Below are positions 10,172 to 63,978 of a stretch of 64,000 bases of DNA, in pieces. The notes under the pieces are model-generated. The model made no database searches and had not been told where the DNA came from. It was given only the letters and a program-made list of their open reading frames with translations. Source of the DNA: Escherichia coli (GTDB lineage Bacteria > Pseudomonadota > Gammaproteobacteria > Enterobacterales > Enterobacteriaceae); assembly GCF_041248615.1 (NCBI RefSeq), contig NZ_CP158426.1. One strand, 5' to 3'. The position numbers and the translations under genes are program-made. Numbering within the stretch: the stretch's first letter is position 1; each line of letters starts with the position of its first letter.

Positions 10172-13100
10172 ATGCAGGTCAGCAGAAGGCAGTTCTTTAA
10201 GATCTGCGCTGGCGGTATGGCAGGCACCACGGCAGCGGCACTGGGTTTTGCACCCAGCGTAGCACTCGCGGAAACCCGGCAGTATAAACTGCTGCGCACC
10301 CGCGAAACCCGTAATACCTGCACCTATTGTTCCGTAGGCTGTGGGCTGTTGATGTACAGCCTCGGTGACGGAGCAAAAAACGCCAAAGCATCTATCTTCC
10401 ATATCGAAGGCGATCCGGATCACCCGGTCAACCGCGGTGCACTTTGTCCGAAAGGCGCTGGCCTGGTGGATTTCATCCACTCCGAAAGCCGTCTGAAGTT
10501 TCCGGAATACCGTGCGCCAGGTTCTGATAAATGGCAGCAAATCAGTTGGGAAGAGGCGTTTGATCGCATCGCCAAACTGATGAAAGAAGACCGCGATGCT
10601 AACTACATTGCGCAAAACGCCGAAGGCGTGACTGTTAACCGCTGGCTCTCCACCGGGATGCTGTGTGCTTCCGCGTCGAGTAACGAAACCGGCTATTTAA
10701 CGCAAAAATTCTCCCGCGCGCTGGGTATGCTCGCGGTCGACAACCAGGCGCGTGTCTGACACGGACCAACGGTAGCAAGTCTTGCTCCAACATTTGGTCG
10801 CGGTGCGATGACCAACCACTGGGTCGACATCAAGAACGCCAACCTCGTCGTGGTGATGGGCGGTAACGCCGCTGAAGCTCACCCGGTCGGGTTCCGCTGG
10901 GCGATGGAAGCCAAAATTCACAACGGCGCGAAGCTGATTGTGATCGATCCTCGCTTTACGCGTACGGCGGCGGTGGCTGACTACTATGCCCCTATTCGTT
11001 CCGGTACTGACATTGCTTTCCTGTCAGGCGTATTGCTGTACCTGCTGAACAATGAAAAATTCAACCGCGAATACACCGAAGCCTATACCAACGCCAGCCT
11101 TATCGTGCGTGAGGATTACGGCTTTGAAGATGGCCTGTTCACCGGCTACGACGCGGAAAAACGCAAGTACGATAAATCCTCCTGGACTTACGAACTGGAC
11201 GAAAACGGCTTCGCCAAACGCGATACCACGCTGCAACATCCGCGCTGCGTGTGGAACTTGCTGAAACAGCACGTTTCCCGCTACACGCCAGATGTGGTTG
11301 AAAACATCTGTGGTACGCCAAAAGACGCGTTCCTGAAAGTCTGCGAATACATCGCCGAAACCAGTGCTCACGATAAAACTGCCTCGTTCCTGTATGCCCT
11401 CGGCTGGACGCAACACTCTGTTGGTGCGCAAAACATTCGTACGATGGCGATGATCCAGCTGCTGCTCGGCAATATGGGGATGGCAGGCGGCGGCGTTAAC
11501 GCCCTGCGCGGTCACTCCAATATTCAGGGGCTGACGGACCTGGGGCTGCTGTCGCAGAGCCTGCCGGGTTACATGACGTTGCCGAGCGAGAAGCAGACCG
11601 ATCTGCAAACCTACCTTACAGCCAACACGCCAAAACCGCTGCTGGAAGGTCAGGTAAACTACTGGGGCAACTACCCGAAATTCTTCGTCTCCATGATGAA
11701 GGCCTTCTTTGGTGATAAAGCGACGGCGGAAAATAGCTGGGGCTTTGACTGGTTGCCGAAGTGGGATAAAGGCTACGACGTCCTGCAATACTTCGAGATG
11801 ATGAAAGAAGGCAAGGTCAATGGCTATATCTGCCAGGGCTTTAACCCTGTTGCCTCATTCCCGAACAAAAACAAAGTGATCGGTTGTCTGTCGAAACTGA
11901 AGTTCCTCGTCACCATCGACCCGCTGAACACTGAAACCTCTAACTTCTGGCAGAACCACGGTGAGCTGAACGAAGTTGACTCGTCGAAGATCCAGACCGA
12001 AGTGTTCCGTCTGCCATCGACCTGCTTCGCGGAAGAGAACGGTTCTATCGTTAACTCCGGTCGCTGGTTGCAGTGGCACTGGAAAGGTGCGGACGCCCCG
12101 GGGATTGCGCTGACTGATGGCGAGATCCTCTCCGGTATCTTCCTGCGCTTGCGCAAGATGTATGCCGAACAGGGTGGCGCGAACCCGGACCAGGTGCTGA
12201 ACATGACCTGGAACTACGCCATCCCGCATGAGCCGAAGTCGGAAGAAGTGGCGATGGAGAGCAACGGTAAGGCGCTGGCCGATATTACCGATCCGGCAAC
12301 CGGGGCGGTTATCGTCAAGAAAGGCCAACAACTTAGCTCGTTCGCCCAACTGCGCGATGACGGTACCACCTCCTGTGGCTGCTGGATTTTCGCCGGTAGC
12401 TGGACGCCAGAGGGCAACCAGATGGCACGCCGTGATAACGCCGATCCGTCTGGCCTCGGTAACACGCTGGGCTGGGCATGGGCATGGCCGCTTAACCGCC
12501 GCATTCTGTATAACCGCGCCTCCGCAGATCCGCAGGGTAACCCGTGGGATCCGAAGCGTCAGTTGCTGAAATGGGACGGCACCAAATGGACCGGCTGGGA
12601 TATTCCGGACTACAGCGCAGCACCTCCGGGCAGTGGCGTCGGGCCGTTTATCATGCAGCAGGAAGGCATGGGACGTCTGTTTGCCCTTGATAAGATGGCG
12701 GAAGGTCCGTTCCCGGAACACTACGAGCCGTTTGAAACGCCGCTGGGAACTAACCCGCTGCATCCAAACGTTATCTCGAACCCGGCTGCGCGTATCTTTA
12801 AAGACGACGCCGAAGCGTTGGGTAAAGCCGATAAGTTCCCGTATGTCGGAACCACCTATCGTCTGACCGAGCACTTCCACTACTGGACCAAACACGCGCT
12901 GTTGAACGCGATTTTGCAACCAGAGCAGTTTGTGGAAATCGGGGAGTCGCTGGCGAATAAACTTGGCATTGCCCAGGGCGATACCGTGAAAGTCTCCTCC
13001 AACCGTGGCTATATCAAAGCCAAAGCGGTGGTGACCAAACGTATTCGCACGCTGAAAGCGAACGGCAAAGATATCGATACCATCGGTATTCCGATTCACT

Positions 13101-39676: not shown

Positions 39677-39845
39677 TGTTTAATCCTTTTGGTTTAAACC
39701 AGATGAAGCATCTTACGCTTACGCCAAAAAAGAAAGCAATTAACGGTGTATGACTTTGCAGATAATTGTGACAAAGCTCTCTATTGACGTAATCACAGAC
39801 TTATAAGGGAGATACTCGCATTGGTGTGCGCTCACGACAGGTAAA

Positions 39846-39878
39846 AAAAAACCTGCCAGCGATGGCAGGTTTTTTATA
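39846..39878 (-). terminator. Rho-independent terminator downstream of typA (bidirectional hairpin)
   Basis: aaaaaaaaacctgccagcgatggcaggttttttat: GC stem flanked by A-run and T-run, 15 bp past the typA stop. Confidence 0.75.
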
Positions 39879-39892
39879 ACTAAAAAACGAAA

Positions 39893-41716
39893 TTAATCGT
39901 CTTTCGGTGCGCGGTTGGCGCGACGACGATCGTTTTCCGTCAGGTGACGTTTACGAATACGGATAGAGGTCGGAGTCACTTCTACCAGTTCGTCATCATC
40001 GATGAACTCCAGAGCTTGTTCCAGAGTCATGCGGATAGGCGGAACCAGAACAACGGCTTCGTCAGTACCGGAAGCACGCATGTTGGTCAGTTTCTTACCG
40101 GTCAGGCAGTTTACAGTCAGGTCGTTAGAGCGGCTATGAATACCGATAATCTGACCTTCGTAAACTTCTGCACCGTGACCGAGGAACAGCTTACCGCGAT
40201 CCTGCAGACCGAACAGCGCGAACGCTACCGCTTTACCCTGACCGTTAGAGATCAGTACGCCGTTCTGACGCTGACCCACTTCACCCGGACGTACGTCGTC
40301 GTAGTGGCTGAAGGTGGAGTACAGCAGACCCGTACCAGAAGTCATGGTCATGAACTCAGAACGGAAGCCAATCAGACCACGGCTTGGGATCACGTAGTCG
40401 AGACGTACGCGGCCTTTACCGTCTGGATTCATGTTTTTCAGGTCGCCTTTACGTTCGCCCAGCGCCTGCATCACAGAACCCTGATGCTGTTCTTCAACGT
40501 CCAGCGTCACGTTTTCATACGGCTCTTGTTTACGACCGTCGATTTCACGGAAGATTACTTTCGGACGGGATACCGCCAGTTCGAAACCTTCACGACGCAT
40601 GTTTTCGATAAGAACAGACAGGTGCAGTTCGCCACGACCAGAAACGCGGAACGCATCGGCGTCTTCGGTTTCTTCTACGCGCAGCGCAACGTTGTGTACC
40701 AGTTCTTTGTTCAGACGATCCAGGATCTGACGAGACGTTACGAACTTACCTTCTTTACCGCAGAACGGCGAGGTGTTAACGCAAAAGAACATAGAAACGG
40801 TCGGCTCATCAACGGAGAGTGCCGGCAGCGCTTCAACGTTTTGCGTGTCGCAAACGGTGTCAGAAATGTTCAGTTCGCCCAGGCCCGTGATCGCCACGAT
40901 ATCGCCAGCTTCCGCCAGATCGGTTTCAATACGTTCCAGACCGAGGTGGCCCAGCACTTTACCGACTTTCGCGTTACGGGTTTTGCCTTCGCTATCGATG
41001 ATAGTGACCTGCTGGTTCGGCTTCACTTTACCGCGCTTGATGCGGCCAATGCCGATAACGCCAACATAGCTGTTGTAATCGAGCTGAGAAATCTGCATCT
41101 GGAACGGACCGTCAAGGTCAACGTCCGGCGCAGGAACGTGGTCAACAATCGCCTGATACAGCGGGGTCATGTCTTCCGCCATATCTTCGTGGTCCAGACC
41201 CGCGATACCGTTCAGCGCAGAAGCGTAAACGATCGGGAAGTCCAGCTGCTCGTCGGTCGCGTCGAGGTTAACGAACAGATCGAATACCTGATCCACAACC
41301 CAATCAGGACGCGCGCCAGGGCGGTCAACTTTGTTGATAACAACAATCGGCTTCAGGCCGTAAGCAAACGCTTTTTTGGTTACGAAGCGCGTTTGCGGCA
41401 TCGGGCCGTCAAATGCGTCAACCACCAGCAGCACTGAGTCTACCATGGACATTACACGTTCAACTTCACCACCGAAGTCGGCGTGCCCCGGGGTATCAAC
41501 GATGTTGATACGGTAATCATTCCATTTGATAGCGGTGTTTTTCGCGAGGATGGTAATCCCACGCTCTTTCTCCAAATCGTTGGAGTCCATCACGCGCTCT
41601 TGGGTTTCGGCACGAGAGTCGAACGTACCGGATTGTTGGAGCAGCTTGTCTACCAGGGTGGTTTTACCATGGTCTACGTGCGCGATGATGGCGATATTAC
41701 GCAATTTTTCGATCAC
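39893..41716 (-). CDS. typA: Ribosome-associated translational GTPase TypA/BipA
   Basis: 607 aa [26 protein letters not shown]..., G-motifs AHVDHGKTT / DTPGHADF / NKVD; divergent from glnA. Confidence 0.95.
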
Positions 41717-41864
41717 AACTTTGCCTCAGGCATTAGAAATAGCGCGTTATTGTACACGGATTAATCGCACTACAAAACAGGATCACAAACATCCTCCGCA
41801 AACAAGTATTGCAGAGTCCCTTTGTGATCGCTTTCACGGAGCATAAAAAGGGTTATCCAAAGGT

Positions 41865-42010
41865 CATTGCACCAATATGGTGCTTAATGTTTCCATTGAA
41901 GCACTATATTGGTGCAACATTCACATCATGGTGCAGCCCTTTTGCACGATGTTAAGCATGATAACGCCTTTTAGGGGCAATTTAAAAGTTGGCACAGTTT
42001 TCGCTTTATC
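41865..42010 (+). promoter_or_regulatory. glnA control region: NtrC binding sites and sigma-54 promoter glnAp2
   Basis: Dyad sites tgcaccaatatggtgc (about 41868-41883) and gcactatattggtgca (about 41901-41916); sigma-54 -24/-12 element TTGGCACagtttTCGCT at about 41989-42005, about 85 bp upstream of the glnA ATG. Confidence 0.8.
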
Positions 42011-48115: not shown

Positions 48116-48625
48116 TTAGTTGCCCCGCAGCAGACGCATCATATCTTCTTGCTTCTCGTCTTCTTCCTCTTCTTCGTCATCGTCATAAGAGAGGCCGAGT
48201 TTCTGCATCAACTCATCAATACGATCCAGTTTGGCATCCACCCAGGATTGCTCTTCGGCGCTCAGGGTTTCGCCTGCTTCCAGACGTTCCAGCAGCGCAT
48301 CCAGACGCTCATCCGTTTCCAGTAACTCCAACTCCGCCTGCGGTGAAAGCATAGGTTTCTCACTCTTCGGTTTGTGCTGTTTGGTGACTTTTTCAGTCAC
48401 GCCCAATGGAATAGGGGTTTTACTGCCAATACGTGGATCTTTCGGTGCGTTCTGGCCTTTGCTGCCTGACGTGGTGTTACCGCCCGCTGCGCGGCTGCCC
48501 GGCGCATGACCACGACGTTTTTTCTGACGCTTACGGTCACGAGCTTCCTGATCCAGCTCCTCGCGTGTTTTTCGACGCGCTTTTGCATGACCTTTGCTGC
48601 GTGAGTTTGAAGATGATGGTTTCAT
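48116..48625 (-). CDS. yihI: Der GTPase-activating protein YihI
   Basis: 169 aa from [34 protein letters not shown]..., highly charged, acidic C-terminus; track ORF extended 21 codons upstream. Confidence 0.88.
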
Positions 48626-48691
48626 AATGGTTCGTCTTTTAGCCGTTTTATTCAGTATAGATTTGCGGCGGAATCTAACAGAAAGCAAGCA

Positions 48692-48936
48692 AAGAAAAAA
48701 GGCGACAGATTACTCTGTCGCCTTTTTTCCTGACTCATAACCCTTAACGGGTCTTACAATCCTTGCAGGCCGCCAACACACCCTGTTTTTCCATTAGCCG
48801 GAACAATCCGTGTTGATTCCATTTCCGTTTAATTACGTCTCCGGACGTTTGTCTTCCTGACAATCCTCTGTCTTCGCCTCCTGGCGCTCCTGACCCTCAT
48901 CCTGAGTCATTGTTCCTGTTAGCGTCCTCGCTCTAT
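48692..48936 (-). ncRNA. csrC: CsrC small RNA (CsrA-sequestering)
   Basis: Minus-strand sequence begins ATAGAGCGAGGACGCTAACAGGAACAATGACTCAGGATGAGGGTCAGGAGCG..., carries many AGGA/GGA motifs, and ends in the hairpin GGCGACAGAGTAATCTGTCGCC plus T-run; matches the CsrC sequence as I remember it; located between yihI and engB. Confidence 0.85.
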
Positions 48937-49206
48937 GGGTGCTACTTTACGCCTTTGCTTTAAACAAACAATCAACCGCCATCAGTATTTGCACATTTTC
49001 AGAGTTTTATATAAAAGCAATTAACTGATTTATATAGCTTATTTGACATGCATCGCAGAATTTTCTCTGCTATTTCGCATAAAGACTATCGGCAATGTCT
49101 CACAAAGCGTATGGCTTTTACTTACAACGCTCACGCCGAAAAATCCGCCTTTTATTATGGTTCAGGTATAATCGCCGCAAAGCTTTGACTGACGGAGACG
49201 ACCGCT

Positions 49207-49839
49207 TTGACTAATTTGAATTATCAACAGACGCATTTTGTGATGAGTGCGCCTGATATTCGCCACCTACCTTCCGATACCGGAATTGAAGTGGCTTTTG
49301 CAGGCCGTTCCAACGCAGGTAAATCCAGCGCGCTGAACACGCTGACTAACCAGAAAAGCCTGGCGCGGACCTCAAAAACCCCAGGGCGCACCCAGCTTAT
49401 CAACCTGTTTGAAGTGGCTGACGGCAAGCGTCTGGTTGACCTGCCCGGCTATGGCTACGCGGAAGTCCCGGAAGAGATGAAGCGCAAATGGCAACGCGCG
49501 CTCGGCGAATACCTCGAAAAACGTCAGAGCCTGCAAGGTCTGGTGGTGCTAATGGATATTCGCCATCCGCTGAAAGATTTGGATCAGCAGATGATTGAGT
49601 GGGCGGTAGACAGCAATATCGCCGTGCTGGTGCTGCTGACCAAAGCGGACAAACTGGCAAGCGGCGCACGTAAAGCGCAATTGAATATGGTGCGTGAAGC
49701 GGTGCTGGCGTTTAACGGTGATGTGCAGGTTGAAACGTTCTCCTCACTGAAGAAACAAGGCGTGGACAAGCTGCGGCAGAAACTGGATACCTGGTTTAGC
49801 GAGATGCAGCCTGTAGAAGAAACGCAGGACGGCGAATAA
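49207..49839 (+). CDS. engB: Ribosome-biogenesis GTPase EngB (YihA)
   Basis: 210 aa, TTG start, ...[17 protein letters not shown]... (G1), DLPGYGY (G3), TKADK (G4). Confidence 0.92.
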
Positions 49840-49961: not shown

Positions 49962-50073
49962 CAATAAAAAACGCCCCAGTCATTACTGACTGGGGCGGCT
50001 AAAATATTCAGCCAAATCCGATTACGTGAAGTAAAAGGTCTGAAAGATAGAACATCTTACCTCTGTACCCTAC
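49962..50073 (-). ncRNA. spf: Spot 42 small RNA
   Basis: Minus-strand sequence GTAGGGTACAGAGGTAAGATGTTCTATCTTTCAGACCTTTTACTTCACGTAATCGGATTTGGCTGAATATTTTAGCCGCCCCAGTCAGTAATGACTGGGGCGTTTTTTATTGG matches Spot 42 as I recall it, including the terminal hairpin and U-run; lies downstream of polA. Confidence 0.9.
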
Positions 50074-50220
50074 GCGACTAACTTTACTCTTTTTTGTTCA
50101 GTTCAGAAAGCATTTTTTGTAATTTTTTTTCAGTTGTTGCATAGGAATTTCTAATAGCCATCACAAAACGTGACAGCTTATGTTGCTTACTTACGAAAAA
50201 AGGGCATGTTCAGGCGAATC

Positions 50221-60601: not shown

Positions 60602-60721
60602 ATGCCTGGCAGTTCCCTACTCTCGCATGGGGAGACCCCACACTACCATCGGCGCTACGGCGTTTCACTTCTGAGTTCGGCATGGGGTCAGGTGGGACCA
60701 CCGCGCTAAGGCCGCCAGGCA
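60602..60721 (-). rRNA. rrf: 5S ribosomal RNA
   Basis: Reverse complement reads TGCCTGGCGGCCTTAGCGCGGTGGTCCCACCTGACCCCATGCCGAACTCAGAAGTGAAACGCCGTAGCGCCGATGGTAGTGTGGGGTCTCCCCATGCGAGAGTAGGGAACTGCCAGGCAT (120 nt). Confidence 0.97.
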
Positions 60722-60814
60722 AATTCTGTTTTATCAGACCGCTTCTGCGTTCTGATTTAATCTGTATCAGGCTGAAAATCTTTCTCTCATCCGCCAAAAC
60801 ATCTTCGGCGTTGT

Positions 60815-63719
<2,905 letters not shown>

Positions 63720-63902
63720 TCACAACCCGAAGATGTTTCTTTCGATTCATCATCGTGTTGCGAAAATTTGAGAGACTCACGAACAACTTTCATTGTTCAG
63801 TGTTTCAATTTTCAGCTTGATCCAGATTTTTAAAGAGCAAAACTTCGCAGTGAACCTTTGCAGGTACACTCTGAAGTATTTTTTATTTAATCACTACAGA
63901 GA

Positions 63903-63978
63903 TGGTGGAGCTATGCGGGATCGAACCGCAGACCTCCTGCGTGCAAAGCAGGCGCTCTCCCAGCTGAGCTATAGCCCC
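63903..63978 (-). tRNA. alaT: tRNA-Ala (anticodon UGC), in the 16S-23S spacer
   Basis: Reverse complement GGGGCTATAGCTCAGCTGGGAGAGCGCCTGCTTTGCACGCAGGAGGTCTGCGGTTCGATCCCGCATAGCTCCACCA; G3:U70 wobble pair in the acceptor stem and TGC anticodon. The specific rrn operon (rrnA by synteny with mobB) is inferred. Confidence 0.93.

Follow-up and report, generated by a model that had tools for sequence, protein, structure and literature searches.

The small RNA CsrC of Escherichia coli has been characterised since 2003. The RNA of K-12 (Weilbacher et al., 2003, as cited in PMC7652899) is an in vivo antagonist of CsrA, several dimers of which it binds, and it has a short half-life owing to CsrD-dependent decay by RNase E (PMC7652899). 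CsrB (Rfam RF00018, clan CL00106) resembles CsrC in sequestering CsrA by many GGA-containing hairpins, in being activated by the BarA–UvrY system and in decaying via CsrD and RNase E (PMC7652899; PMC4682653), and the two RNAs compensate each other by feedback (PMC7652899; PMC4682653). RsmY, RsmZ and RsmX of Pseudomonas and CsrB1-3 of Vibrio are likewise GGA-repeat decoys for CsrA or RsmA, and their transcription is driven by GacA or VarA, which are UvrY orthologues (PMC1488887; PMC4682653). These RNAs belong to different sequence families, lie in different genomic contexts and are without detectable sequence homology to CsrC.

The location and the upstream regulatory DNA of csrC have also been described. 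Its homologues always adjoin yihI and yihA (Kulkarni et al., 2006; PMC1488887). Binding of UvrY at csrC was mapped by ChIP-exo to the region from -223 to -143, and the inverted repeat TGTGAGACATTGCCGATA lies at the centre of this upstream region (Zere et al., 2015; PMC4682653). DNase I footprinting showed that UvrY binds the upstream site specifically, and a TGTAAG half-site precedes the inverted repeat by 16 bp (PMC4682653).

Here, a stretch of 64,000 nucleotides from E. coli contig NZ_CP158426.1 (the window) was analysed, in which an initial annotation, made by reading the letters alone, had proposed a CsrC gene in the minus-strand segment between yihI and engB (Table 1). Several lines of evidence, with none of the results speaking against them, make it almost certain that the segment represents E. 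coli csrC, the product of which is, according to the literature, a decoy RNA sequestering CsrA. A covariance-model scan of the whole window (cmscan) detected the Rfam CsrC family (RF00084) on the minus strand at 48683-48936, over model positions 1-255 of 255, with a score of 277.9 bits (E = 1.2e-87), more than four times the gathering score of 61. This match extends 9 nt beyond the 3' end first proposed because the Rfam model takes in post-terminator bases. The possibility of CsrB at this locus was rejected, as the CsrC model was the best one in the competition within clan CL00106 and the neighbouring genes are yihA and yihI, not syd, which is the gene that CsrB adjoins. CsrB is also longer and bears 22 GGA motifs, in contrast to 14 in this CsrC; in addition, CsrB requires IHF and has a UvrY inverted repeat that is nearly a perfect palindrome.

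Table 1. Features of the csrC locus in coordinates of the 64,000-nt window (nt, nucleotide of the RNA).
Feature	Position	Strand	Remarks
yihI (Der GTPase-activating protein)	48116..48625	-	co-directional, downstream, 66 nt past the CsrC 3' end
csrC gene (CsrC sRNA, 245 nt)	48692..48936	-	+1 = 48936; Rfam RF00084; K-12 b4457
Hairpin 1 (nt 5-16), loop AGGA	48921..48932	-	closing pair G-C to A-U compensatory, 25/68 sequences
Hairpin 2 (nt 28-46), loop AGGAUGA	48891..48909	-	GGA kept in 64/68, same column
Hairpin 3 (nt 51-62), CGCC-AGGA-GGCG	48875..48886	-	invariant in 68/68
Hairpin 4 (nt 65-78), loop GAGGAU	48859..48872	-	Rfam consensus structure
Hairpin 5 (nt 89-102), loop CGGA	48835..48848	-	U-A to C-G compensatory, 19/64 sequences
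Long interrupted stem (nt 122-163), GGA at nt 128 and 145	48774..48815	-	helix 6 C-G to A-U, 18 sequences, one pair
Two short 3' hairpins: nt 171-181, loop CAAGGAU; nt 185-197, CCCG-UUAAG-GGGU region	48740..48766	-
Rho-independent terminator (nt 208-243)	48692..48731	-	16-18-bp stem, 4-nt loop, U-tract
Pseudo-CDS (nt 27-193)	48744-48910	-	equivalent to 1801-1967 of locus L002 and 427-593 of locus L123
Likely -10 TAAAGT	48944..48949	-	-13 to -8; assigned from conservation, no mapped promoter
Likely -35 TTGTTT	48966..48971	-	-35 to -30; 16-nt spacer; assigned from conservation
UvrY (SirA) inverted repeat TGTGAGACATTGCCGATA	49087..49104	-	-168 to -151; exact match to the published site
TGTAAG half-site	49121..49126	-	16 bp upstream of the inverted repeat
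yihA/engB (ribosome-biogenesis GTPase)	49207..49839	+	divergent, upstream, 270 bp from csrC +1

Pairwise alignment places the curated K-12 csrC gene (b4457; NC_000913.3, 4051036-4051281) at 48691-48936 of the window, which runs in reverse of the K-12 map. The segment is identical to the K-12 gene at 244 of 245 positions, with the same 5' end and a 3' end that differs by 1 nt. The two loci share the +1 position, the terminator, the flanking yihA and yihI genes and the upstream UvrY inverted repeat, and differ at RNA nt 144 and at two further sites in promoter-proximal intergenic DNA. At nt 144 (window 48793), the only difference within CsrC, U is found here and A in K-12. This base is directly 5' of the GGA at nt 145, the 12th GGA, which therefore reads UGGA here and AGGA in K-12. 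All four bases occur in this column of the homologues: U is present in other Escherichia representatives as well (L015, L097 and L065), whereas other genera have G, A or C. csrC here is an already known gene, and nothing new about its biology is claimed. The locus serves as a positive control, in that a tool-free reading recovered a real non-coding gene with the exact 5' end and a 3' end 1 nt short of that of K-12.

Of 5426 complete E. coli genomes, 5424 contain the 245-nt segment at 98.4-100% identity and two lack a match. The window is therefore part of an E. coli chromosome other than that of K-12. A few genomes contain two csrC-like places, the highest number per genome, and two of the matches are on plasmids.

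In the window, csrC lies within a 581-bp gap extending from the yihI ATG (48625, minus strand) to the yihA/engB start (49207, plus strand), and the flanking genes are those of K-12 csrC, in agreement with the location first proposed. Starting from yihI, the gap consists of the 66-nt spacer, csrC itself (245 nt) and about 270 bp with divergent promoter sequences and regulatory DNA that includes the UvrY site. The sRNA had been thought to explain a long 'empty' intergenic region; it does lie inside this region, but fills only 245 of the 581 bases.

For comparison among species, a collection of species-representative genomes was scanned with the hairpin 3 pattern GCGCCAGGAGGCGAA-N(3-8)-AGGA, which yielded 120 loci, and an nhmmer search with the CsrC sequence of the window retained 67 distinct sense-strand homologues, giving an alignment of 68 rows. 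About 50 pattern loci in Actinobacteria, Planctomycetes and others were chance matches and were removed by nhmmer; three weak antisense matches were dropped, as they came from Citrobacter loci that already had a sense-strand match. The homologues represent about 17 genera, namely Escherichia, Salmonella, Citrobacter, Enterobacter, Klebsiella, Kosakonia, Leclercia, Lelliottia, Pluralibacter, Pseudocitrobacter, Superficieibacter, Silvania, Phytobacter, Trabulsiella, Yokenella, Kluyvera and Huaxiibacter.

The gene order is conserved throughout this set. A divergent yihA and a co-directional yihI surround csrC in all 61 loci that contain both flanks. yihI is co-directional and downstream in 66 of 67 loci, the remaining locus ending before the yihI side. 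Divergent yihA was found in 61 of 67 loci, at an upstream distance of 258-386 bp or, with two loci excepted, of 259-283 bp, and in the other six the yihA side is at or beyond the end of the sequence examined. One contig (L116, CACSKA010000012.1) is labelled Chryseobacterium sp. 18061 and has a typical enterobacterial yihA-csrC-yihI locus with 90% identity in YihA; this contig is probably from a contaminated or mislabelled assembly.

The upstream DNA also corresponds to that described for K-12. The 18-mer TGTGAGACATTGCCGATA occurs once in the window, with no other site within two mismatches. By its exact sequence and its published distance from csrC, this site is predicted to be the UvrY-binding site. 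Of the 66 upstream regions of homologues, 39 have TGTRAG at both half-site positions. In a scan of 48500-49300 with the sigma-70 consensus, no promoter was found, and the -10 and -35 hexamers in Table 1 were therefore assigned from cross-genus conservation. Among the 66 upstream regions, GTAAAGT (-14 to -8) is at least 95% conserved at six of seven columns and at least 80% at the seventh, and TTGT (-35 to -32) is at least 95% conserved. A csrC -10 element too weak for a consensus scan fits dependence on an activator. On the plus strand, a perfect TATAAT is located at 49167-49172, about 35 bp before the TTG start of yihA/engB, within sequence that shows at least 95% conservation in about 17 genera, and is likely the -10 element of a yihA promoter divergent from csrC.

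CsrC is predicted to fold at -87.4 kcal/mol, as compared with -58.7 +/- 4.2 for shuffled sequences (z = -6.8). The layout of elements in Table 1 is the Rfam consensus structure mapped onto the window sequence. In the 68-row alignment, this structure is paired in 86.8% of cells, as opposed to 39-50% after displacement of the 3' partners by 1-3 columns, and compensatory changes were found in helices 1, 5 and 6 and in the terminator. The invariance of hairpin 3 is circular and gives no independent support, because hairpin 3 was in the search pattern. Hairpin 2 has the loop closest to CAGGAUG, the SELEX-type motif of CsrA. The apparent pairing of helices 2 and 6-7 is only 67-74% because MAFFT shifts the register between the Escherichia/Citrobacter and Enterobacter groups; similarly, 68% of cells are paired in the long interrupted stem of the MAFFT alignment, which is partly an effect of alignment register. 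The alignment was used as made, since the conclusion is independent of the register shift.

The intrinsic terminator noted in the first reading is present at 48731-48692 on the minus strand, with a stem of 18 pairs, 7 of which are G-C, followed by a U-tract. Across the 68 sequences, 98.8% of its cells are paired, and A-U is exchanged for U-A in four of them. This element bears on the idea that the segment is mainly a cis-acting structured 5' leader of yihI, in which case transcripts from the csrC promoter would pass the terminator and the CsrC-type hairpins would govern the expression of yihI. The two genes are co-directional and 66 nt apart, no promoter-like site was found between them, and the close spacing is conserved: the yihI protein match starts 50-98 nt, typically 53-63 nt, past the 254-nt Rfam span in 66 loci of about 17 genera. 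However, a terminator that is long (16-18 bp, with a G+C-rich core and a U-tract) and nearly invariant argues for efficient termination, the K-12 annotation and the literature describe a discrete, short-lived, trans-acting RNA, and even partial read-through would leave the trans function in place. We thus consider a mainly cis-acting leader very improbable, and a separate trans-acting CsrC RNA remains the preferred reading.

More limited roles for these features can be envisaged. The co-directional order of csrC, terminator and yihI, with about 55-65 nt before yihI, recurs in every locus that covers the downstream flank; csrC and yihI might accordingly be functionally coupled through regulated read-through of the terminator and, separately, the U/A difference at nt 144 might slightly alter CsrA stoichiometry between lineages; we regard this as unlikely. 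Were it true, read-through would supply part of yihI transcription, and BarA–UvrY/Csr signalling would be linked to the Der GTPase-activating protein and hence to 50S ribosome assembly.

The annotation of this locus in public records differs from its identity as an sRNA gene. csrC is named only in the curated K-12 record, as an ncRNA. In all of 60 E. coli records, taken at regular intervals from the ranked list of the 5424 E. coli matches, a 'hypothetical protein' is the only feature placed by RefSeq automatic annotation under the csrC match. In the records of strains 7/2 and O157:H7 PV15-279, the feature inside csrC is a CDS described as 'hypothetical protein; frameshifted; internal stop', and no ncRNA is given. 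The equivalent pseudo-CDS in the window fuses a 25-aa ORF starting with ATG (48833-48910) to a 39-aa ORF starting with TTG (48744-48863) across a frameshift. The initial annotation had held the RNA to be invisible to ORF-based annotation; the absence of an ncRNA in the two opened records bears this out, but the statement was too mild, as a spurious pseudogene CDS occupies the place. Pipelines using RefSeq automatic annotation would miss CsrC and count a spurious pseudogene instead, and the practical value of the present analysis is as a data-quality note on csrC annotation in the sampled RefSeq E. coli genomes.

Taken at face value, this annotation would mean that the segment is a decayed protein-coding gene, and the recurrence of the 'hypothetical protein' in every sampled record is in favour of such a view. 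The annotation itself, however, requires both a frameshift and an internal stop. The sense ORFs within csrC are only 22-39 aa long, and no conserved reading frame was found among the 68 sequences: only 7 of the 68 retain the ATG of nt 27, and their longest sense ORFs span 12 to 63 codons in inconsistent frames. Moreover, the substitutions in stems are compensatory and not codon-patterned, and the curated K-12 record describes an ncRNA. For the lack of a conserved frame and the compensatory stem changes, a small protein or a pseudogene was rejected, and we give such a reading next to no credence relative to that of a non-coding CsrC RNA.

The repeated GGA and AGGA motifs had been put forward as the mark of CsrC, and their number and placement bear this out. 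The sense (minus) strand of the segment carries 14 GGA and 9 AGGA, in contrast to 2 and 0 on the antisense strand; the minus-strand means per 245 nt over the window are 3.3 GGA (sd 1.8) and 0.67 AGGA (sd 0.88). In a strand-specific sliding window of 245 nt, the csrC locus is the maximum of the whole 64 kb for both motifs. The AGGA signal is visible only in this way and not in a window-wide count, in which 330 AGGA were observed and 361 expected, figures that are uninformative alone. Shuffles of the RNA that preserve dinucleotides retain its GG and GA content and provide a conservative test: the observed 14 GGA compare with 8.9 +/- 2.0 and the 9 AGGA with 2.9 +/- 1.6, nine being the top count in any of 2000 shuffles. 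The shuffled average of 8.9 indicates that part of the GGA excess is due to composition.

When the motifs are counted in the Rfam consensus structure, six GGA are in hairpin loops (nt 10, 35, 56, 71, 95 and 175) and five in single-stranded linkers (nt 21, 47, 80, 111 and 117); of the remainder, the one at nt 128 straddles an internal bulge, that at nt 145 is in a stem and that at nt 207 is at the base of the terminator. Ensemble thermodynamics of the single sequence give GGA bases a mean unpaired probability of 0.61, as compared with 0.40 for all bases. The single-sequence MFE fold pairs four to five of the motifs (nt 10, 111, 175 and 207) and disagrees with the Rfam consensus at nt 10 and 175, which are paired in the former and in loops in the latter. 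With a tolerance of +/-4 columns in the alignment, 13 of the 14 GGA sites are kept in 64 or more of the 68 sequences, that at nt 175 being invariant (68/68), and the homologues carry 12-17 GGA with a median of 14. That this GGA richness is a functionless accident of a purine-rich intergenic stretch, which the compositional part of the excess might suggest, is ruled out by the strand asymmetry (14 versus 2), the window-wide maximum at the locus, the conservation of single motifs across genera while flanking bases vary, and the score of the full covariance-model match.

On the basis of its 244/245 identity to the reference gene, the CsrC of this strain is expected to share the CsrA binding, sequestration, UvrY activation and turnover of the K-12 RNA (PMC7652899; PMC4682653). 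Transcription on the minus strand from 48936 would end at the intrinsic terminator near 48692, producing a non-coding RNA of about 245 nt that would expose some 14 GGA motifs, most of them in short-hairpin loops or in the single-stranded linkers joining the hairpins. As each CsrA dimer binds GGA-containing sites, one CsrC would tie up several dimers, drawing them off lower-affinity mRNA leaders, and this sequestration would relieve control of glycogen synthesis, biofilm formation (pgaABCD), motility and central carbon metabolism. Phosphorylated UvrY, the product of BarA–UvrY two-component signalling, would activate csrC transcription from the site at -168 to -151, ppGpp and DksA would also be stimulatory, and the RNA would probably be removed by CsrD-dependent RNase E decay.

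A second sRNA gene is located near csrC. Spot 42 raises CsrC levels in Salmonella (PMC7591399). In the window, Spot 42 (spf; RF00021, 122.8 bits) occupies minus-strand positions 49965-50083, beyond yihA and about 1 kb away from csrC. UvrY/SirA crosslinks near spf, a gene that in K-12 also encodes the small protein SpfP. The up-regulation of CsrC by Spot 42, together with this crosslinking, suggests that two functionally linked sRNA genes flank yihA.

Other non-coding elements were also detected in the window. ES222 (RF02755) is at 41798-41905 on the minus strand as a full-length Rfam match of 133 bits (gathering score, 62), and STnc370 (RF02064), at 39840-39908 on the same strand, is a borderline match of 54.9 bits (gathering score, 54). 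A selenocysteine insertion element, SECIS_3 (RF01989), is at 10754-10812 on the plus strand with 84.3 bits, implying a selenoprotein gene there, which from its usual map position is presumably that of a formate dehydrogenase subunit. A partial rRNA operon occupies 60604-63978 on the minus strand, with 5S rRNA at 60604-60719, 23S rRNA at 60815-63719, the StyR-44 spacer element at 63727-63835 and a tRNA at 63906-63978.
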